Virus record (IMG/VR): IMGVR_UViG_3300025072_002799
Location: 47,203-111,202 of that record
DNA length: 64,000 bases
Strand: one strand, 5' to 3'
Source: a virus
A program made the position numbers and the translations under genes. Shown here in pieces: positions 53,509 through 64,000 of this stretch. The notes beneath the pieces were generated by a model. That model was given only the letters and a program-made list of their open reading frames with translations. It was not told where the DNA came from and ran no database searches. Numbering within the stretch: the stretch's first letter is position 1; each line of letters begins with the position of its first letter.

Positions 53509-56500
53509 ATGGCTGCTGGTGACTTTCTAATTCGGCGTAACAACGCAGAGACAACGAATATACCCAATGCGGGTACGAACGTTGATGTCACTTGGGATAC
53601 CGAGGTCAAGGACAAGGGCAGCACTCTTACTTATTCTGCTGGTGAGATCACGGTTCCTGATACCGGACCTTATCTCATTATCTATAATGAAGAGTTCGCT
53701 ACTACAGAAACCACCAATAATGAACGTATCGAGATGCAAGGAGAAATCCTCATCAACGGTTCGCCAATCATGGGTGGGCGTGGTCAAGATTATATCAGAA
53801 AGGGTCAACAGGGGCATCAAGAGTGTGTTGTAAGTGGAGCATCAATTACTGAGCTTACTGCCAGTGACACAATTCAAATCAGGTTCTATAGAACCGACTC
53901 TTCGCCTGATGTTGCTGTCGATAGAGTCCCGCTTAAAGGTGGTTTGCAGGTTCTACAGTTAGACGATACCCACAACTACGGCATCTACTCTAAGACTACA
54001 TCCACTGCATTTACCACCACATTCACGGACGTTGCATGGGACAACACTATTCGACAAGATACTGGATTCACTAGGACTGGCGGAAGCATCGACATCGCCA
54101 ATGCCGGACGATACGTTGTCACCATCGGCTGCGACCTTACTAGAACAGATAACAGCACAAGAGTTTTAGCAAATACCAAGTTGCAATTGGATGCCGTTAC
54201 TGTAGCTGGAACTAGATCTTCTTGTTACATGCGTGGAAGTCAGGGTGGCGACAGTTCTAACGATGGTGCTTTGAATGGGATATGGATTATAGATGTGGCG
54301 GCAGGCGAAGATTTAACCCTTCAAATATTCCACAACAGTAACACTCCCGCAACAACCGCCACAGCTAATATGGAAATCTCCATCTGGCAACTTCCAGCAG
54401 ATAGTGAAGAGATCATAGTTGAAGCTACGACTGGTGATATGAATGCTGTCGGGACATTCACATGGGACACAAATCCAGTCATCGACACAGGATCGTTCAC
54501 ACATACCGTTGCAACCGCACCAATCGAAGTCGATGAAGACAACGATTACCTATTTGTCGCAACTACTGTCAGAGTCAACACTGTTACCGTCACTCGCGTG
54601 TCACCAGAACACGCTCTAGCCGTTGATGGCACTAGAGTGCAATACGGAATGGGCGGCGTCTTTCTTAGAGAATCTGCAACATCAAGAGGATCTATAACGG
54701 CAGCGGCGATTCTGCCTCTCACAGCAGGGCAAGAAGTTACCGTTGATGTCGCTAGGTTTTCCACCACAACTACTGCCGTTGCTAATGAGCGTGGACAGTT
54801 CGCAGCTATTAATCTTGGCAAGGCATTTCCTTCTGGGGAAGAACATCTTGGAGAAGTTGATGTGGCAGGCGTTGGAGACGTTACATCAGACGCCTCAATA
54901 GATCGCTTTGTTGATATTGGCATTGATGGAACTGGAACAGTTGATGCTTCTGCTAATGTTGATTTAGGTGGCGAAATAATACTTGATGGTGCTGGCACAG
55001 TTGATGCTACTGGAACTGTGTCAACCTCTGTTGTTGTTAATGGAGAAACAACCATTGATGGCACAGGAACAATTGATGCAGGTGCTATAACTGATCTTGT
55101 TGGGGATTCAACTCTTTGTGGCATAGGCATCATTGGAGAGGTGTGTGAGTTTGACGAATCTTTCAGTAGTGCGTTTCAAATTTGCGAACTATCTGGAGTT
55201 ACTGGAAGAGTTGATCGCGGAGGAGAGACAACGCTTGAAGGAACAGGAACACTTGATGTTAGTGCTTCTGTTGACCTTGGCGCAGACATTGACTTGGATG
55301 GAACAGGCGTATTAGATGCAACCGCTTCTATTGACCGCTTTGTTGACATTGATCTTGAAGGAACAGGAACACTTGATGTTAGTGCTTCTGTTGACCGCTT
55401 TGCAGAAATAACCCTAGACGGATCTGGGACTGTAAATGCAGATGCTTTGGTGGAACTTGCTGGGGATGTTGATCTTAATGGAGTTGCATTAGTTGATCCA
55501 ACTGCTTCTATTGATCGCTTTGTAGAAATTGACATAGACGGAACAGGAACATTAGACGTTACTGCTTCCGTTGACCTTGGTGCAGATGTTGACATTAATG
55601 GAATAGGATCTATAGGAACCACAGCCTCCATTGATCGCTTTGTTGAAATTAACATTAATGGAACTGGAACAATTGTTGCAGATGCAACAGTTGATGCTGC
55701 GGCAGAGATTCTTGGCGAAGTTGATCTTGAAGGAACAGGAACATTAGACGTTACTGCTTCAATTGATCGCTTTGTTGACATTGACATTGAAGGAACAGGA
55801 ACATTAGATTCCACGGCTTCTGTTGATCGCTTTGCAGATGCAACGCTTGAAGGAACAGGAACATTAGACGTTACTGCTTCTGCTGAATTTGGTGCTGAGA
55901 TAAACCTTGATGGGACTGGCGTATTAAACGCTGATGCTTCTGTTGATCGCTTTGCTGACATTGATCTTGATGGAATTGGAACACTAAATACAACTGCCTC
56001 TGTTGATCGCTTTGCTGACATTGATCTTGAAGGAATAGGGATATTAGATGTTGTCGCTTCTGTTGATCGTTTTGCAGACACAACACTTAATGGAACAGGC
56101 GTTATAGATGCAAATGCTTCTGTTAGGTTGTGTGCCAGCACAACTCTTTCTGGTTCAGGAGTCATTAATGCAACTGCAACTTTAGATACGGCAATCCAAA
56201 ATGGAGAAATAAACCTTCTTGGAGTCGCCAACATTGTAGCTGCTGCCACGGCTGATTTTGAGGCAGACACTACGCTAAATGGAACTGCATCAATTAATGC
56301 AAATGCCACCCTCGTAAAAGACCCAACTATCCCTCCAAGCCCTCAGTTGCCTCCACAAGGGTTCCCAGGAGATTTCGCCAATAGTCTTGGTGTTGGACCT
56401 GGAATACCGCTAGGGGTTGTGTCTGGCAATCTTAGGAAAGATATATGCCGAGATCCAAATGATGCTATAACTATCAAATTTAAGTATAAAAATAATATAT

Positions 56501-56622
56501 ATTCTCAAACGAACACTAAGAACGGCTGTATAGATATTGGTATAGAGAATATTAAAATAGCACCCAAAAAGAGATCTGAGTCGGGTATTAAAATAAGAAT
56601 TAACGAATTGCAAAAGGTTTAA
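53509..56622 (+). CDS. Large fiber/adhesin-like virion protein: three C1q/TNF-like domains plus 20-aa repeat shaft
   Basis: Three WD...I....G/D.Y modules; acidic 20-aa repeats. Confidence 0.75.
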   Translation: MAAGDFLIRRNNAETTNIPNAGTNVDVTWDTEVKDKGSTLTYSAGEITVPDTGPYLIIYNEEFATTETTNNERIEMQGEILINGSPIMGGRGQDYIRKGQQGHQECVVSGASITELTASDTIQIRFYRTDSSPDVAVDRVPLKGGLQVLQLDDTHNYGIYSKTTSTAFTTTFTDVAWDNTIRQDTGFTRTGGSIDIANAGRYVVTIGCDLTRTDNSTRVLANTKLQLDAVTVAGTRSSCYMRGSQGGDSSNDGALNGIWIIDVAAGEDLTLQIFHNSNTPATTATANMEISIWQLPADSEEIIVEATTGDMNAVGTFTWDTNPVIDTGSFTHTVATAPIEVDEDNDYLFVATTVRVNTVTVTRVSPEHALAVDGTRVQYGMGGVFLRESATSRGSITAAAILPLTAGQEVTVDVARFSTTTTAVANERGQFAAINLGKAFPSGEEHLGEVDVAGVGDVTSDASIDRFVDIGIDGTGTVDASANVDLGGEIILDGAGTVDATGTVSTSVVVNGETTIDGTGTIDAGAITDLVGDSTLCGIGIIGEVCEFDESFSSAFQICELSGVTGRVDRGGETTLEGTGTLDVSASVDLGADIDLDGTGVLDATASIDRFVDIDLEGTGTLDVSASVDRFAEITLDGSGTVNADALVELAGDVDLNGVALVDPTASIDRFVEIDIDGTGTLDVTASVDLGADVDINGIGSIGTTASIDRFVEININGTGTIVADATVDAAAEILGEVDLEGTGTLDVTASIDRFVDIDIEGTGTLDSTASVDRFADATLEGTGTLDVTASAEFGAEINLDGTGVLNADASVDRFADIDLDGIGTLNTTASVDRFADIDLEGIGILDVVASVDRFADTTLNGTGVIDANASVRLCASTTLSGSGVINATATLDTAIQNGEINLLGVANIVAAATADFEADTTLNGTASINANATLVKDPTIPPSPQLPPQGFPGDFANSLGVGPGIPLGVVSGNLRKDICRDPNDAITIKFKYKNNIYSQTNTKNGCIDIGIENIKIAPKKRSESGIKIRINELQKV
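54840..56310 (+). repeat. 60-bp (20-aa) coding repeat, about 23 diverged copies
   Basis: TASIDRFVDIDLEGTGTLDV consensus; ttgatcgctttg and ggaacaggaac recur with a 60-bp period. Confidence 0.9.
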
Positions 56623-56625
56623 TCC

Positions 56626-57327
56626 GTGGACAACAACATTATTTACAAGAATAAGGGCGAAACCTTTAAATGTAATTTCGACATTGATGGAGCATCAATT
56701 GATGACATTGCTGTACGACTTTGCTTAGAGTTCGGTGACAACAAAAACATGTTTTTCTATGGAAACATAGACGAAAAAGGAAATTGCGATGTCCACATTC
56801 CTCGTCTAAGTGAATTAGAAGACAAGTCTGGCAAAATGGTAATTGAAGCTATTGTTGATTCAACATACTTCAGATTGTATGAATGTCATGTTGAGTTGAA
56901 AAATTCCGTGAATGTCAAAATGAAGCAGATGGAAGGAACTTTCTTTCAAGATCGTGGTCCAACTAAAGAAGCGAAAATTCAACTTTCTGGGCTAGAAAGA
57001 GATACGCCAGCAGCAGAAAAGAGCCAAATTGTGCAAGAAGATAATAAGGGCGAAGAAAAAGAAATTAAAAAGCCTTCTTCAGGGTATAAATGGGGATACA
57101 AAGAAGAGGACAAGCCAAAATCTAAGCCAGAGATTAAAGAAGAGGCTACTTTGACAAAAGAAGATGCTACGAATCCCTACACAAGAGCAAAACACAATGG
57201 CTATGTAAGCCCAAAGCGTGAAAAAAAGGTCGTAGAGGCGCATGATGAGGCGCATGACGAGTCGCATGATAAAAGCCAAGGTTTTAGAAAATTTGAAGAC
57301 TTCTTGACATCTAATAATTTAAAGTGA
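56626..57327 (+). CDS. Hypothetical protein (N-terminal beta domain, charged tail)
   Basis: 233 aa, GTG start; its stop lies inside the IS-like right end. Confidence 0.7.
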   Translation: MDNNIIYKNKGETFKCNFDIDGASIDDIAVRLCLEFGDNKNMFFYGNIDEKGNCDVHIPRLSELEDKSGKMVIEAIVDSTYFRLYECHVELKNSVNVKMKQMEGTFFQDRGPTKEAKIQLSGLERDTPAAEKSQIVQEDNKGEEKEIKKPSSGYKWGYKEEDKPKSKPEIKEEATLTKEDATNPYTRAKHNGYVSPKREKKVVEAHDEAHDESHDKSQGFRKFEDFLTSNNLK

Positions 57328-57430
57328 ACCGTCCAACTAATCGTTGAACTTCATGCTTCACAGACAATTGGTTATTGCTAACTCTTACATCGTCTCCACA
57401 TGTGTAATCGACTGTCCCAGCCGATGTGTT
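57324..57430 (-). ncRNA. Putative omegaRNA scaffold and IS200/IS605 right end
   Basis: Minus strand tcggctgggacagtcgattacacatgtggagac...gtgaagcatgaagttcaacgattagttggacggttcac immediately after a tnpB 3' end, ending TTCAC. Confidence 0.7.
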
Positions 57431-57580
57431 TTAGTTTAATCCTTCATCAAGAATATTTTTTGCTGCGTTCAAGTCACGATCTAATTCATGACCATTGGCG
57501 CAAGTCCATTTTCTGTCTGAAAGTTTTAACTCTTGATTTATCCAACCACAAACATTACATGTTTTTCGGCTACCTTTCAA
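57431..57580 (-). pseudogene. tnpB: TnpB C-terminal remnant (zinc ribbon plus RuvC-III)
   Basis: Manual translation: [44 protein letters not shown]. Confidence 0.88.
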
Positions 57581-58137
57581 ACTTCAAACGAGCGGGCGGT
57601 TTGAGTTAATCCATCTTCCGATTCTACGGCAAATCTAAGTTTGCCTTTAATGGTATCATTGACAAACGTAACGTTTATCTTTTCCATTGGATCAAATGCG
57701 CCAAAAAGAGAATGAAACAACCCCTCCATTTGTAGAGGGGTTGTCCCATTGATTAGGATCTGTTGAGCAGCCATGCTCTGTTTACGGATTGCATTTACAT
57801 CACTTTCCTTGTATCTCCGATGATTTCCTTCAGTTCTCTCAGGGATAAGCTTCCCTTTTTCCTCCCAGTTGCGCACAGTTTGCTGTGATACGCCGAGAAT
57901 ATCAGCAACATCATTAATGGTTAGGTGACGGTCCTCGTTGCACTCGTCTTTAATGACTTGTTGGATATGAAGATTTTTATGCTTGGTGTCGGGGTCGTTA
58001 TATAAATTTTTACGCCCCTCTGCAAGCATATCTTTTCTGGCTTTAGCTGATGCTTCAGCCATTTCTGGGATAATGAGATCAATCTCATCTTCGATTTTTT
58101 TAGAAGGCATTCCGCCATCTCCTATTCTAATTGACAC
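57577..58137 (-). CDS. MerR-family HTH DNA-binding protein
   Basis: [38 protein letters not shown]. Confidence 0.88.
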
Positions 58138-58222
58138 TATTATATAGTAAGACTTTTAGAATATTTGTAAAAAAATCTACAATTTATTAAATTAATGTAA
58201 AATACTTGAAATGTAAATTACA

Positions 58223-58846
58223 TCAATCATCCATTATGGCAGCTAATGCTGGGTGAGTTGGAACTGTCCTAGTTCCCGTTTTCACTTGATGCACCTGTCT
58301 TGCTAACGGAGACTGCCTTATTTCTGGCTCTTTTTTACTTTTAAGCATTTGAGCAATTGGATCTTCAGGATCGCTAGATTCGCCTCCAGGCTTAAACATT
58401 CCCTTAAGACGACGCATTGTGTTTTTGGTAGCAAGAGCAGAACGCTCTCTGTCGGCTTGCTCTGAGTCTCGTGAAGCAGCTAATCGTCCACGTCTTCGTG
58501 ATTCACGACCAACCTTACTTGCTGGCATACTGACCCATAATCTACGCCCTTTAAGCTGCTTTTGACGATCATGAGAAATGTCAGATGGATCTTTTTCAAA
58601 GAACTGAGACAATTTAACTAATTCGTGTTTTTGGCTTCCCAAGATCTGCACAACAACATCTACTTTTCCGACTTCTTTTACTATGCCGTAATTAGATGTT
58701 TTTCGTGATGGGAATTCAACAATGTCACCTTTGTCCATTGTCATTCTAACATCATCTGCGTGATCTAAGTCTTTTCGCACTGCGTTTGTAGACGCCTCTG
58801 TAATGCTTAGCCATTCTGCAAATGACATGTTTGTTTCTTCGTTCAT
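58223..58846 (-). CDS. Putative internal head protein (KOW/SH3-like segment)
   Basis: MSFAEWLSITE; KGDIV...YGIVKEV. Confidence 0.6.
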   Translation of the reverse strand: MNEETNMSFAEWLSITEASTNAVRKDLDHADDVRMTMDKGDIVEFPSRKTSNYGIVKEVGKVDVVVQILGSQKHELVKLSQFFEKDPSDISHDRQKQLKGRRLWVSMPASKVGRESRRRGRLAASRDSEQADRERSALATKNTMRRLKGMFKPGGESSDPEDPIAQMLKSKKEPEIRQSPLARQVHQVKTGTRTVPTHPALAAIMDD

Positions 58847-58902
58847 CTCAGAACCTCAAAAAATTTAATATCACTATAGATATGCTTTTGAGTTTACAAA
58901 AA

Positions 58903-59079
58903 TCAACTAGATGCAGTCAAAAACAGCATAATTAAACTAACAGAAAACATCATAAATCCTGGCAAGAGCCACATTACAGCCATTATCGCTGGATCATGTC
59001 CTGGCACACTTTCCACAATGTATTTCCAAAAGAATAAATTGGAAATAATTATAGCAATTATTGACAACAACATCATCAT
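58903..59079 (-). CDS. Small 2-TM membrane protein (58 aa, absent from ORF track)
   Basis: MMMLLSIIAIIISNLFFW...LFLTASS*; start overlaps the upstream stop. Confidence 0.5.
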   Translation of the reverse strand: MMMLLSIIAIIISNLFFWKYIVESVPGHDPAIMAVMWLLPGFMMFSVSLIMLFLTASS

Positions 59080-59474
59080 TATAATTTGCCTGACTTCTTC
59101 AAGTTTTCATGAAATCCTTCAAGCAAGTTGTCTAATTCTTTATCGTCTAGAGAAAGCCCGCTTGTCAAATCATTCATTGTTTCAACAACAATATTGCAGA
59201 GAGTTAAAAACAAATCATCATCAGATGATTCTTCATTGAAGTGCTTGAGAAGATTAAGAACGCACTCTTGAACAATGTCTTCTTTGTCATAGCCAGAAAC
59301 AAAGTCCATGCTGTATTTTGAATAAATTAAATTTATCAAATCATATAATGCATAACCCAATTCGTTTGGATCATGCCCTAACCACACACTAGTGAGCCAA
59401 CCGTTGACTTTCTTTTTGTGGTTTTTATCGCCTGCTAATTCAAGCCATCTGTTTTTCATTTTTCGTCCCTCCAT
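59079..59474 (-). CDS. Hypothetical protein (weak sigma region-2-like segment)
   Basis: YDKEDIVQECVLNLLK. Confidence 0.5.
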   Translation of the reverse strand: MEGRKMKNRWLELAGDKNHKKKVNGWLTSVWLGHDPNELGYALYDLINLIYSKYSMDFVSGYDKEDIVQECVLNLLKHFNEESSDDDLFLTLCNIVVETMNDLTSGLSLDDKELDNLLEGFHENLKKSGKL

Positions 59475-59511
59475 AATTTGAAATGGGACACCTTAGCCTA
59501 ATGTATTTATG

Positions 59512-60102
59512 TTAAACTAAGCTCTTTTCCCAATCTTCTGCACATTTAGCTTTCATCTCTTCATAGAAAAGTTCCTTCTCTTCTAGGCGATAATACATAA
59601 AAGGGGGAGTTTCAGGGGCGATTATTTTTAAAAAATTATGCGTTCCTTCTTTGGTAAAAACTATGCGACCAGTATCTCTTTCCTTGCGTATATCACAAGG
59701 CATGTCAACCTCATTAAAAAACCTTTTTATAACTTTGTTTCCTGCCATTCCAAAAGAAGTTGTTCTCAAACATATCCTCTTTTTAGAAACGAAAAATCCT
59801 TTATCTAAAAACCATGCTGCCAGTGCTGCGCCTGTAAGTTGGTTTAAAGAATCCATGTTCATCTCATTGTAAAAACTTTTATGCAAATCAGTCCACACAG
59901 AGTTAGATTGGGATCTCCAATACCCTTGACTAACTGGCGATGGTCGGGCGTATTCTTCAAGACATTGACATTTAAAATTAAACCAATTTTCGTCTTCGAC
60001 TGGTGCCATAGTCATAAAATAATTAACGCCCGTTTTAGGCTTTGACAAGTAGGACTTCCCTAACAGAGTCCCATAGATCAATTGTTTTTGGTATATCTTC
60101 AT
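59512..60102 (-). CDS. LAGLIDADG-fold protein with both catalytic acids lost
   Basis: LIYGTLLGKS and LAAWFLDKG versus canonical GxLLGDG and WFMDDG. Confidence 0.8.
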   Translation of the reverse strand: MKIYQKQLIYGTLLGKSYLSKPKTGVNYFMTMAPVEDENWFNFKCQCLEEYARPSPVSQGYWRSQSNSVWTDLHKSFYNEMNMDSLNQLTGAALAAWFLDKGFFVSKKRICLRTTSFGMAGNKVIKRFFNEVDMPCDIRKERDTGRIVFTKEGTHNFLKIIAPETPPFMYYRLEEKELFYEEMKAKCAEDWEKSLV

Positions 60103-60226
60103 GTTCTTATTTATGCCATAAAATTATATAATTCGTCCTTATATATGCTATTTCTCCTTAATTATTGAATGTTGCAATCATATCTACTTTTGAATATCAA
60201 ACACTCTTTTTAACGAGGTAATTAAA

Positions 60227-60583
60227 ATGGGAGCAACATCCGTTACAGGAACAGGACATGGAGATGTCTCTGGACTAAATAGAGGCTCGGCTCATATGAC
60301 CCTAGCCGTAGGAAACTTGCTTGGACCAAAAGTTGTAGTCGCTGGCTATCACACTTTGACTTCTGGAAGCAACGTACTCAACATTGGAACACTTGAAGGT
60401 GATCTAGCAGACTATATGGTTTTGGTAAGTGATGACGGCGCAATTGGCGTGGCTGCTGCTGCGGGACAATTGACCGCTCTTAACCAAGTGACCATCCAAG
60501 GAACCAGCACTCATGTAATTCATTGGGCTGTAATTCACGTTGGTGATAATCCTGTCGCTGGTCATGCAGGTAGCACTGTCTAA
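60227..60583 (+). CDS. Probable small virion structural protein
   Basis: 118 aa, G/T/V-rich; GAGG SD. Confidence 0.6.
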   Translation: MGATSVTGTGHGDVSGLNRGSAHMTLAVGNLLGPKVVVAGYHTLTSGSNVLNIGTLEGDLADYMVLVSDDGAIGVAAAAGQLTALNQVTIQGTSTHVIHWAVIHVGDNPVAGHAGSTV

Positions 60584-60673
60584 CTGACAGTTTAACAATA
60601 CGTTTTTCACCCTTTGGGGTGGATTCCGTCTCCTTCCCCTATGGGAAGGTCATGTCTCCTTTCTAATTGACAG

Positions 60674-60712
60674 AAAAAACCCCTTAAGCGATGTAGCTTC
60701 TGGGGTTTTTTT
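60674..60712. terminator. Bidirectional terminator at the trailer end of the array
   Basis: aaaaaacccc...ggggttttttt. Confidence 0.75.
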
Positions 60713-60769
60713 CTTTTAAATGGAAAACATGGACTGATATGCATTTTTTTTGGTTTGCATTTTGTAGAT

Positions 60770-61173
60770 CTTGCACATACACCTCAAACATAGGTTATAT
60801 CATCTATTCCAGAACGCCCGTCTCACACGACCTTGCACATACACCTCAAACATAGGTCATATGCATCTAGAATAAAACTTTTGCATCATAACTTTTGCTT
60901 GCACATACACCTCAAACATAGGTCATATGCATCAAAAAAAAGAGACTGGTCAAGCCACTATAGCTTGCACATACACCTCAAACATAGGTCAGAAGAAGAA
61001 GTTGGCTTGCACATACACCTCAAACATAGGTCATATGCATCAGGCTGTCTGATAGCCCTTACGCCATCACTCTTGCACATACACCTCAAACATAGGTCAT
61101 ATGCATCAAAGGACACGGCGAATCAATCTACTCATTGCTTGCACATACACCTCAAACATAGGTCATATGCATC
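60770..61173 (-). CRISPR. CRISPR array, 7 repeats and 6 spacers; repeat GATGCATATGACCTATGTTTGAGGTGTATGTGCAAG
   Basis: Repeats at 60770 (degenerate, 35 bp), 60832, 60898, 60964 (truncated, 28 bp), 61006, 61072 and 61138; unique spacers of 27, 30, 30, 14, 30 and 30 bp; degenerate left end implies minus-strand transcription. Confidence 0.97.
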
Positions 61174-61234
61174 AGTTTGAATGTAAGTTCTTGTTTTCAA
61201 AGATCTTAGGTGTTTTCATAGGATTAAAAAACCT
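61174..61234 (-). promoter_or_regulatory. CRISPR leader with IHF-site-like motif
   Basis: AT-rich; minus-strand AAACAAGAACTTA (61184-61196) is one mismatch from WATCAANNNNTTR, 10 bp from the first repeat. Confidence 0.55.
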
Positions 61235-62704
61235 CTACTCGGCCCTCATCAATCTTTCCAAAGGTTCGAAAAAATCACATTTTGAGTTCAAGTCCTCAGT
61301 TGATTTCACACTATTTTTACAGACTAGCCGAGACAATTCTCTGACTTCTTTTTCACTTAACGCTGCCTGTAGGATTGTACATGATCCTGACCAAGACTCT
61401 CGTGCAAGGTCCGCGTTAAGCACATTGTTTTCAACAAAAGTCATTAAGTATGCCGAGAACAAATGTCTATCGGATTCTACGCCGCATTCACAAATGTGCC
61501 AACGTTCACTTAATTCCTTCTTCTTAATATTACCACAAAAACATGTTTGACTCAAGCTTGTTTTGAATGTATTTATTTCATTAAAATTACCACCGCTTTT
61601 TGTAACTCCATATTTTAAAATCTCAATAAATTGTGATGGTGCAAACCCATTAATGCTTCGACTAAATCTCTTGTCTTTTTGCCATTGTCCATAACTATTT
61701 GTTTCTACTCTAAAATCATTGCCCATTAACATTATGTGATTTGCTAATTTGCGATGATAGTTCTTCCTTTCGGCGGATTTCTTTCTATGAAGTTCTTTAA
61801 TTAACAACTTTGTTTCTAACATTCCTTTGGAGCGTTTTATTTTTGTTCCTTTTTTATAAGTTCCATTTTCATTAAAAGAGTCTGGGTTGTGCTGTCTGGT
61901 CTGTCTATCTAACTTTCTTTGATGCACTCTTAATTGTCTGTTCAGATTTTTAGAATCTTTTGTCATTAAAGGGAATTTCATAGCCATATTTGATGAAACT
62001 ACATCAATAAACCTTGGTCCAACATCAATTCCAACCTTCCCTTCTCCAAGTTCATGATCTGTTGGTGATTGTCCATCAATGACCAGTTGTGCATAGTATT
62101 TTGTCTTTTTAAATTCTGTTCGTCTAATCATACGAACATACCTAACATTTTGCTCTGCTCCAAACATAGTGTAACTATCATTTGGATCAGCTTCTATTTT
62201 AAGCTTTTTGAATTTAACAAAATAAAGATTGAGATCCCCCTTTTTTTCTTTTTTCCACTTTGCACAAGATCCGGTACGTCCTTCGATTGCATTGAATTGT
62301 TTATAACTGCTCATCTTTGGTCTGCCCTTCTTTCCAATAGCAAATTGATTAACAGAGGAAAAGGCAAGCCCAGTTGTAGCGGAAACAGTGTTAGCTCCAA
62401 TGTGATGATTGATCCATGATTTTGTAAATTGTGTAGACCAATTTTTAAGGCAAAACTCTGTAAATTTAAATTCTGTTCTTAATTCCTTGAAAGCTTCTTT
62501 TTTTTCTTTTCCATCTTTCATCTTACAAGCACGACTGTATCTCTTTGTTCTCCTCATTTCTTTTAGCCTTTTTAAGGCTTCCCCAACAACAGCGTTTCTG
62601 ACTTGCCTATTGGCTTCAAACGCCTTATCCAACTTCAAAGCTTGATGCGGAGTTGGTCTAAGAGCTATTTCGCAGATGTATCGTTCTTTTTTTTCTTTTG
62701 CCAT
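61235..62704 (-). CDS. CRISPR-associated TnpB-derived RuvC protein (candidate compact Cas12)
   Basis: EIALRPT N-terminus; GIDVG (D227); RVET (E334); SQTCFC...WHICEC zinc finger; DRHLFSA (H414 at the RuvC-III Asp position). Confidence 0.9.
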   Translation of the reverse strand: MAKEKKERYICEIALRPTPHQALKLDKAFEANRQVRNAVVGEALKRLKEMRRTKRYSRACKMKDGKEKKEAFKELRTEFKFTEFCLKNWSTQFTKSWINHHIGANTVSATTGLAFSSVNQFAIGKKGRPKMSSYKQFNAIEGRTGSCAKWKKEKKGDLNLYFVKFKKLKIEADPNDSYTMFGAEQNVRYVRMIRRTEFKKTKYYAQLVIDGQSPTDHELGEGKVGIDVGPRFIDVVSSNMAMKFPLMTKDSKNLNRQLRVHQRKLDRQTRQHNPDSFNENGTYKKGTKIKRSKGMLETKLLIKELHRKKSAERKNYHRKLANHIMLMGNDFRVETNSYGQWQKDKRFSRSINGFAPSQFIEILKYGVTKSGGNFNEINTFKTSLSQTCFCGNIKKKELSERWHICECGVESDRHLFSAYLMTFVENNVLNADLARESWSGSCTILQAALSEKEVRELSRLVCKNSVKSTEDLNSKCDFFEPLERLMRAE

Positions 62705-62709
62705 GACTT

Positions 62710-62739
62710 AAATTATGACATATCATAATTTTAAAGCAA
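62710..62739 (-). promoter_or_regulatory. Sigma70-like promoter overlapped by a palindromic operator
   Basis: Minus-strand TTGCTT-16bp-CATAAT (TG-extended), ATG 7 nt downstream; inverted repeat aaattatga-cata-tcataattt at 62710-62731. Confidence 0.6.
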
Positions 62740-62758
62740 TACATATTTAAGAATTAAA

Positions 62759-62852
62759 TGACACTGGCAGGATTTGAACCTGCATGGTGAGTTTCGTCAG
62801 ACGGGTACTCTTACCACACCTTCAACTTGCGTCTACATTCCGCCACAGTGTC
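62759..62852 (-). tRNA. tRNA-like gene with Leu-type D-arm but no canonical anticodon arm
   Basis: Acceptor GACACTG/CAGTGTC plus A; D-arm GCG-GAATGTAGA-CGC; T-arm GCAGG-TTCAAAT-CCTGC; aberrant 45-nt centre. Confidence 0.75.
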
Positions 62853-63374
62853 TTAAGAAATCATATTCTTTTTAATTGTTAAGGATTTGTTAGTTCCGAT
62901 GAACTTTTCATGTTTATAAGTCCAAAACCAACCTTCTGGCAATTCTAAGCAATGTTCAAAATAGAAACATCTGAATTTATCATTCTTAAAGGAGTCTGGT
63001 TTTATGTCTTTTGGAGCCTTCATTCCCTTTGATCCATCTTCATATGTAACTTCATCGTAATGCTTAATGCATTTAAGAGGATATGTAACCATATATTTGC
63101 CATGATCTTTGGCATATTGAATTGGGTCGTAATTATTTATGTAAATGTGAGTAAACCAGAGAAGACCTTGTTCGCTGTACTTAGGATCTAAAACGTAATC
63201 GTCTCCCTTTTTGTACAACTTATCTGTTCCATGATACAACTCTATAGAGTAAGGTTCAGATTTACGCTTTGTTGATATTATATTCTTTTTCTTAGGTCGA
63301 TCAAGCCCTGTTCCAGGTCCAAAAAGATCATCGAAATCTAAAGAATTCTCTAGGTATTTTTTAAATCTCATCAA
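62853..63374 (-). CDS. Putative internal head protein, ART-like motifs
   Basis: MRFKKYLE; LYHGT...LWFT...YAKDHG. Confidence 0.6.
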   Translation of the reverse strand: MMRFKKYLENSLDFDDLFGPGTGLDRPKKKNIISTKRKSEPYSIELYHGTDKLYKKGDDYVLDPKYSEQGLLWFTHIYINNYDPIQYAKDHGKYMVTYPLKCIKHYDEVTYEDGSKGMKAPKDIKPDSFKNDKFRCFYFEHCLELPEGWFWTYKHEKFIGTNKSLTIKKNMIS

Positions 63375-64000
63375 ACCTCTTTTGGAGACATGAATGTTGC
63401 GCCAGATCTTTTATCTTGTCCAACTATTTCTAATCCAAATCGTTTTTGCAATATTGGAATAAGTCTTTGATTGCGAACATCTAATTTAATGTGTGAGTCT
63501 GGGTTCGACTCTGAAAAATCATGGAACATATCAAGACCAATCTTTATTAGATTCATTCCAACAAAATTCCCGCCCTGTTCACCAATAATATCAAAGCTGT
63601 ATTCTCCAGAATTGTCGTAAGATGTATATAATCCTCCTAAAACCTTTCCGTTTTCATGCGCAACGACAGCTAACTCTTTGTCGCTAAGAATGTTAATTCC
63701 AGATTTTCTCTCAACTTGTTGCAATTGGTCATGCCAATTTTCTGGCAATCCGTCATCATCTGTATCTCCATAATTAACAAATGCATATTGAGTAGATTCT
63801 GACAGCCATTCTTTGAATGAAAGATTGTGAAATGGGGATACATCACGATAAGGATGGTCCAGAAGCCTGTCCATCTCTTCTTTCCCCTTGTGGCTTGAGA
63901 GAGCCTTCCACGCTTTGCGGTTATCTGATCGGTTATTCTTCTTGAAAGCCTTAGAAAGGGCTTTAGCGATGTCCATTACGGCTGTTCTTGGGCTACTCAT
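63371..64000 (-). CDS. Putative internal head protein (possibly 5'-truncated) with GNAT-like C-domain
   Basis: Internal LSFKEWLSE; KVLGGL...GGNFVG...LQKRFGL. Confidence 0.55.
   Translation of the reverse strand: MSSPRTAVMDIAKALSKAFKKNNRSDNRKAWKALSSHKGKEEMDRLLDHPYRDVSPFHNLSFKEWLSESTQYAFVNYGDTDDDGLPENWHDQLQQVERKSGINILSDKELAVVAHENGKVLGGLYTSYDNSGEYSFDIIGEQGGNFVGMNLIKIGLDMFHDFSESNPDSHIKLDVRNQRLIPILQKRFGLEIVGQDKRSGATFMSPKEV

Follow-up and report, generated by a model that had tools for sequence, protein, structure and literature searches.

Histidine at the RuvC-III catalytic position of a TnpB-derived CRISPR effector in a marine phage

The window, meaning the whole 64,000-nt stretch of viral DNA that was analyzed, encodes a TnpB-like protein (P0001) with an incomplete D-E-D triad, in which D227 and E334 are kept and the third residue is histidine (His414). 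As judged by alignment, His414 sits at the RuvC-III catalytic position, and the gene lies beside a short CRISPR array. Our preferred reading, to which we give a rough probability of 0.4, is that P0001 has little or no cutting activity and works as an RNA-guided binder.

Fold and family of the effector

The gene was annotated as follows.

61235..62704, minus strand: TnpB/Cas12f-fold effector gene, open reading frame of 489 aa (P0001)

The Pfam domain Cas12f1-like_TNB matched residues 357-418 of P0001 with 30 bits against a cutoff of 26.3, along with weaker matches to OrfB_IS605 and HTH_OrfB. The score for NCBIfam guided_TnpB was 98.5 bits, where the curated cutoff is 100. PHROGs assigned the protein to a "transposase" family (1.6e-45), and PADLOC gave weak matches to Cas12u2 and Cas12f only. 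The AlphaFold2 model, built with 37 family sequences, showed a mean pLDDT of 88 and a pTM of 0.74. Disorder was predicted only for residues 462-489 (61235-61320, minus strand; pLDDT <50), which have no counterpart in relatives. In Foldseek, the best match of the model was ISFba1 TnpB (E 5.5e-16), followed by LaTranC and AsCas12f, at identities of 12-17%. By this predicted fold, with its WED/REC region, split RuvC and zinc-finger TNB domain, P0001 falls within the TnpB/Cas12 RuvC superfamily. When solved structures were searched with the family profile, LaTranC ranked first (2.6e-21), followed by 9yyg (9.7e-17), which is an AI-designed RNA-guided nuclease, RdCas12n and ISDra2 TnpB; the match of the single protein to LaTranC had an E-value of 4.7e-7. 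The protein family of P0001 is a TnpB clade that also takes in multi-copy IS copies of Clostridium phage c-st and a copy in Geobacillus virus E3.

Histidine at the RuvC-III position

The catalytic residues and the zinc-finger segment were located as follows.

62024..62026, minus strand: Asp227 codon (GAT) of RuvC-I (GIDVG), intact; D in 159 of 162 family proteins
61703..61705, minus strand: Glu334 codon (GAA) of RuvC-II, intact; E in 161 of 162, aligned to the LaTranC Glu
61484..61543, minus strand: zinc-finger/TNB segment, with C388, C390, C405 and C407 all kept
61463..61465, minus strand: His414 codon (CAT) at the position of the RuvC-III catalytic Asp in the 162-sequence and LaTranC alignments

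Of the 162 family proteins aligned with MAFFT, 153 had D in the column of His414 and P0001 alone had H; a single divergent member had R there, and seven truncated members were gapped. The HMMER alignment to LaTranC (PDB 9jfo) paired DRH of P0001 with NRD. The protein context of His414 is ...CECGVESDRHLFSAYL..., and the RuvC-III motif across the family reads Q/D-R-D-L-F/Y-S-A-Y/F-L, a divergent form of the usual DRDxNAAxNI. Both alignments thus agreed with the first-pass annotation, which had described His at the RuvC-III catalytic position with the RuvC-I Asp and the RuvC-II Glu intact.

The neighboring D412 was set aside as a stand-in carboxylate, as 18 relatives with D in this column also keep D414, which corresponds to ordinary variation. 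Relocation of the catalytic residue was considered and set aside; in proteins of this kind, the triad residue known to relocate is the Glu and not the motif III Asp. One triad residue can occupy an alternate position, as described for TldR proteins (PMC10705468).

Reality and spread of the substitution

Marine metagenome runs containing 40% or more of the words sampled from region 60700-62800 of the window numbered at least eight, and no RNA run was among those listed. In contigs from four of the marine metagenome runs, belonging to four studies (2017-2020), the depth at codon 414 ranged from approximately 8 to 45 and there were zero differences over the whole gene, at the consensus level of contigs, where rare Asp alleles within a sample would not show. 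The parts of the array covered by contigs of four metagenomes were identical as well. As the contigs of four studies agreed exactly, a sequencing or assembly error as the source of His414 was excluded. The wider supposition that His414 is either such an error or a rare strain variant has in its favor that one nucleotide separates CAT from an Asp codon. It is nevertheless highly improbable in view of this agreement over the codon and the gene, and of the identical protein present on four contigs from four source collections. The first-pass annotation had listed a binding-only regulator, a variant D-E-H site, and decay or error as the options; the list itself was sound, and its error part was refuted by the contigs.

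The source record in IMG/VR is a fragment of 111 kb with a rated completeness of 22%, in which the effector gene is single-copy, and the longest of the four contigs with the identical protein is 389 kb. Taken together with the metagenomes that contain the region, these sizes indicate that the carrier is probably a widespread marine phage with a full genome of several hundred kb.

Search for relatives sharing the histidine

The nearest proteins in a library of 1.84 billion representatives were at most 39% identical to P0001, and the best relative in a full-length word search of a 5.8-billion-cluster library was 34% identical. When residues 380-430 were searched in the latter library, P0001 itself was returned and no second protein. 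Relatives found by the metagenome scan had identities of 28-32% only. A degenerate DNA pattern for the His motif, CG-x4-RH-x-[FY]-S-A-x-L, which covered TCN serine codons only and required the CG of the zinc finger, gave no match in IMG/VR; the Asp version of the pattern retrieved ten viral relatives. On this sequence evidence, His414 is confined to a single known lineage and is not a conserved trait of the family, so that selection for His414 cannot be shown. Comparison of homologs and reads, which had been proposed along with the initial observation, therefore gave a divided answer: the contigs show His, while homologs, at most about 40% identical, show Asp.

Conservation outside the substituted position

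Among the 46 columns with a conservation of 85% or higher, P0001 matched the consensus at 39 and departed at seven, where the family median is three and the 90th percentile eight; His414 was its sole departure at columns conserved above 95%. Ranked within the family, the consensus match of P0001 was at the 16th percentile in the N-terminal lobe, at the 29th over the segment from RuvC-I to RuvC-II, and at the 33rd over the lid, TNB and RuvC-III. As the values of the nuclease lobe were not below that of the N-terminal lobe, the nuclease lobe was not preferentially decayed. The end branch of P0001 in the FastTree phylogeny was 0.92, compared with a family median of 0.72. In dead lineages such as TldR, the triad residues, the lid and the C-terminus are progressively lost (PMC10705468; bioRxiv 10.64898/2026.09.22.753285). 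Because such deterioration was not seen here, P0001 appears, from its sequence, unlike long-dead lineages, and either D414H is recent or the nuclease lobe is still needed.

CRISPR array and guide RNA

The elements downstream of the effector gene were the following.

60770..61173, minus strand: CRISPR array of seven repeats (36 nt) with 30-nt spacers, starting 61 nt past the effector stop codon
60674..60712, no strand assigned: imperfect GC hairpin between an A-run and a T-run, recognized by eye, about 60 nt beyond the last repeat

The effector gene adjoins the array and is co-oriented with it, so that the layout of type V CRISPR-Cas and TranC-like systems is present. The distal repeat is degenerate, with 35 nt and a 27-nt spacer. 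One shortened unit (window 60964-61005) consists of a 28-nt repeat and 14 nt (GAAGAAGAAGTTGG) instead of 36 and 30 nt, and had the same form in the metagenome contigs covering it. On the minus strand the repeat folds into a full-length hairpin (-12 kcal/mol, z -3.4), whereas the plus strand folds poorly (-5.1, z -1.5). The presence of the hairpin on the strand of the gene only supports co-transcription of the array with the effector gene. The GC hairpin at 60674..60712, which was not called by a consensus scan, may act as a terminator in both directions at the end of the unit of gene and array.

No complementarity above background that would represent an anti-repeat or tracrRNA was detected within approximately 1.5 kb on either side. 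The last 28 codons of the gene together with the 61-nt gap offer the only room for a guide-RNA scaffold, and this region was not unusually structured (z -0.7); a cryptic scaffold may nevertheless exist. The Rfam search of window 56500-64000 gave no match, ARAGORN detected no tRNA-like element upstream, and no other viral contig was found to contain an exact 23-mer of the array repeat.

Gene neighborhood

Among the eight neighboring ORFs, neither cas1, cas2 and tnpA nor any transposase domain was detected. The locus differs from an IS200/IS605-IS607 context in that the gene is single-copy, no tnpA is nearby, and a seven-repeat array occupies the place where a single guide would be.

A minus-strand TnpB remnant (window 57330-57481), unrelated to the effector, consists of a TnpB C-terminus with zinc ribbon and canonical motif, followed by a stop. 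This confirmed the earlier report of a remnant near 57.5 kb with a normal motif, as the minus-strand frame ending near 57340 shows CNVCG and the canonical motif. Just upstream on the same strand is a 186-aa ORF with a MerR-type HTH (57577-58137, minus strand; Pfam MerR, 2.4e-14). The order of the MerR ORF and the remnant recalls IS607, in which tnpA with a MerR-like N-terminus precedes tnpB; no recombinase domain was detected. Another minus-strand ORF of 196 aa (window 59512-60102) matched LAGLIDADG_2 (9.3e-15). If the first-pass annotation is right that its catalytic Asp residues are replaced, two RuvC/homing-type nucleases with altered active sites would lie within 3 kb. On the plus strand, a 1037-aa ORF (window 53509-56622) is filled with a motif of approximately 20 aa (…GTGTLDVTASVDRFADIDLE…) repeated in tandem dozens of times and probably encodes a phage fiber or surface protein.

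Search for spacer targets

The best non-self spacer match in the 111-kb record, searched with blastn-short as the phage's own genome although about three quarters of that genome lie outside it, was 12-16 nt. Against GenBank phages, the whole array as a query gave one chance match (E 5). Exact 20-24-mers of spacers S5, S6 and S3 had no match in IMG/VR, and neither had those of S1 and S5 in GTDB genomes. The phage records of five relatives contained only 14-nt chance matches to the spacers.

Mini-arrays beside viral relatives

Short arrays were present 30-200 nt past the gene in four of approximately ten IMG/VR relatives, all of which keep the Asp. These four proteins are 31-40% identical to P0001. 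The arrays were located as follows.

L009, 5586-5905: mini-array
L006, 5701-6041: mini-array
L005, 5577-5736: mini-array
L003, 5638-5729: mini-array

The L009 array shares the design of that in the window, its repeat being a full hairpin of 36 nt and its spacer 30 nt long, and L006 is carried by a complete 512-kb phage. The period is 62 nt in the arrays of L003 and L005, the repeats of which appear to resemble type I-E (CCCC...GGGG). Zinc-finger cysteines are lost in several of the relatives with mini-arrays.

Comparison with known systems

TranC systems represent an intermediate between transposons and CRISPR, with solved structures of LaTranC (PDB 9jfo/9jfq; bioRxiv 10.64898/2026.03.27.714800, 10.1101/2025.09.28.678669). 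The locus resembles them in having a TnpB-sized effector by a short array; TranC repeats are 32-38 nt, and some TranC systems are phage-borne. LaTranC is the best match of P0001 among solved structures by sequence and the second-best by fold, at an identity of approximately 17%. TranC has, however, been described with a split omega-RNA scaffold, whereas neither an anti-repeat nor a tracrRNA was found at the locus in the window, and the characterized TranC nucleases are active and have Asp at RuvC-III where P0001 has His. By sequence and layout, the module in the window would be of the TnpB-to-CRISPR kind described for TranC, the phage form of which is known as Cas12r.

Cas12r of Thermus Lalka phages is, by description, likewise a phage TnpB-like effector followed by a short array. 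The Cas12r-CRISPR system uses crRNA only, is tracrRNA-free and has no adaptation genes, and the D238A mutation abolished interference, demonstrating that an active RuvC is required (bioRxiv 10.64898/2026.04.20.719267). Cas12r differs from P0001 in length (564 versus 489 aa) and repeats (29 bp versus 36 nt), and belongs to a thermophile-specific branch of TnpB. In a tblastn search of the phage collection, no Thermus or Lalka record appeared among the 25 records listed or in the organism tally.

IS-borne TnpB proteins share approximately 30% identity with P0001 over about 90% of the length, and their RuvC-III motif belongs to the same QRD/DRD-L-F/Y-S-A-Y/F-L family. Examples are the 'putative IS transposase OrfB' of Clostridium phage c-st, present in five copies, and the protein of Geobacillus virus E3. 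Unlike the gene in the window, which has an array, no tnpA nearby and His, the IS-borne genes are multi-copy and mobile, lack an array and have Asp at RuvC-III.

TldR proteins are also TnpB-derived, often phage-encoded, and act as RNA-guided binders with a substituted RuvC (PMC10705468, bioRxiv 10.64898/2026.09.22.753285). They were defined operationally by fewer than two intact triad residues, that is, loss of two or more (PMC10705468). In many of them the zinc finger and the C-terminal portion of RuvC are missing, and a single fixed guide RNA serves in place of a CRISPR array. A TldR guide pairs with the promoter region of a host or neighboring gene; the spacers here gave no match in the sets searched. 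By the operational definition, P0001 was ruled out as a TldR, given two of three triad residues intact, an intact C-terminal lobe and zinc finger, and the array. Cas12m (type V-M) is similar to P0001 as a compact type V effector, and some variants have His in the triad. It interferes by DNA binding without cleavage; the His of its variants is at motif I (H-D-D), and variants with D-E-D are also non-cutting, so that the triad is not the sole determinant of cleavage in Cas12m (PMC11013384). Cas12m proteins, of approximately 600 aa, are only distantly related to P0001 (profile E 5.5e-6 to UnCas12m4a). Assignment of P0001 to Cas12m was rejected on this distant profile match, the lack of a Cas12m match in PADLOC, and the location of the His at motif III. 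The analogy to Cas12m and TldR drawn in the first reading of the sequence is accordingly a loose one, as Cas12m has its His at motif I and TldRs lose at least two triad residues, although the repressor function suggested there is plausible.

Functional interpretation

Mutation of any DED residue is stated to abolish the nuclease activity of TnpB and Cas12 (PMC10705468). Since such triad mutants and Cas12r D238A are inactive, D414H most probably means lost or strongly reduced Mg2+-dependent cutting. A mechanism can be proposed in which gene and array together make up a minimal, TnpB-derived CRISPR module of a marine phage with cosmopolitan distribution. The effector and the seven-repeat array, on the same strand, would probably be read as one transcript, and the hairpin repeats would yield the guides, with no helper RNA evident. 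With His in place of the third metal-binding carboxylate of RuvC, Mg2+-dependent DNA cleavage would be abolished or strongly reduced, and the complex would act mainly as an RNA-guided DNA binder with fixed guides, which would keep target DNA from being transcribed or replicated instead of cleaving it. The gene and array were identical across four studies, and a guide set that is static in this way is what hard-wired guides would predict. The array folds on one strand only and runs in the direction of the gene, and the superfamily includes binding-only relatives with an altered RuvC, namely Cas12m (PMC11013384) and TldR (PMC10705468), which also fits binding. On the other side, the His occurs in no relative, and D227, E334 and the nuclease lobe have not diverged further than other parts of P0001. 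Moreover, no spacer target was found in the sets searched, so that no promoter or gene can be named. RuvC-dead Cas12r, from the one tested phage system of such layout, gave no protection (10.64898/2026.04.20.719267), showing that binding alone is not always enough.

Several of the same observations would also be expected if the single GAT-to-CAT change were a recent neutral or mildly harmful inactivation of what had been an ordinary nuclease system, now an inert relic among phages that are nearly clonal; we regard this as somewhat unlikely, though close to the binding reading. The His is present in one lineage only with Asp in all relatives, the remaining catalytic residues and the nuclease lobe have not decayed further, which would fit a young change, and spacer targets were absent from the searched sets. 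The array is also worn, with a deletion in one unit and a degenerate distal repeat, and with zero polymorphisms across samples purifying selection cannot be demonstrated. Against a relic, the 489-codon ORF is intact, as are all but one of the seven repeats; four studies made over a span of years show the gene as fixed, and dead genes tend to be shed by phages. It is unlikely that random decay would first strike one of three catalytic residues in an intact 489-codon ORF; a first hit on such a residue that gives a metal-capable one would be a small share of inactivating mutations. A maintained binding-based function is thus favored, given an ORF that is otherwise intact and typical of the family, guides that do not change across samples, and the rarity of a random first hit on a catalytic residue.

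The retention of D227, E334, R413, S417, the lid region and the TNB zinc finger, and a nuclease lobe conserved as in the Asp-bearing relatives, would alternatively suit a variant D-E-H site that still cleaves, be it slower, Mn2+-preferring, or limited to nicking or RNA processing. His binds catalytic metals in RNase H-fold nucleases, as in the DEDH tetrad of Argonaute and H983 of the Cas9 RuvC. DDE-family nucleases with one residue changed to Cys can still work with Mn2+ (bioRxiv 10.64898/2026.09.22.753285). Nevertheless, Asp was found in 153 of the 154 alignable family members, a distribution that speaks against His as an equivalent substitute, and single triad substitutions inactivate TnpB/Cas12 (PMC10705468) and Cas12r interference (10.64898/2026.04.20.719267). 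In addition, no natural or engineered RuvC-III His with activity was found reported in the literature. Residual cleavage of this kind is judged unlikely, and slightly more doubtful is the proposal that His414 completes a working D-E-H site (e.g. Mn2+-dependent, attenuated or nicking) that is used by the CRISPR module of a giant marine phage.

A one-residue change in a lineage without close relatives is not readable as adaptation from sequence alone, and the evidence here is weaker than where such a change is conserved across a clade. If the D-E-H site works, P0001 would be the first natural nuclease of the TnpB/Cas12 lineage to catalyze with a histidine at RuvC motif III; the functional definition of RuvC would be widened, and calls of dead nucleases made from sequence would change. 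In the preferred case of RNA-guided binding, P0001 would be a ready-made and very small "dead" Cas (489 aa) that arose from a single natural change, and another case of RNA-guided silencing by phages. By its sequence, P0001 represents a further, independent RuvC-altered CRISPR effector derived from TnpB in a phage.
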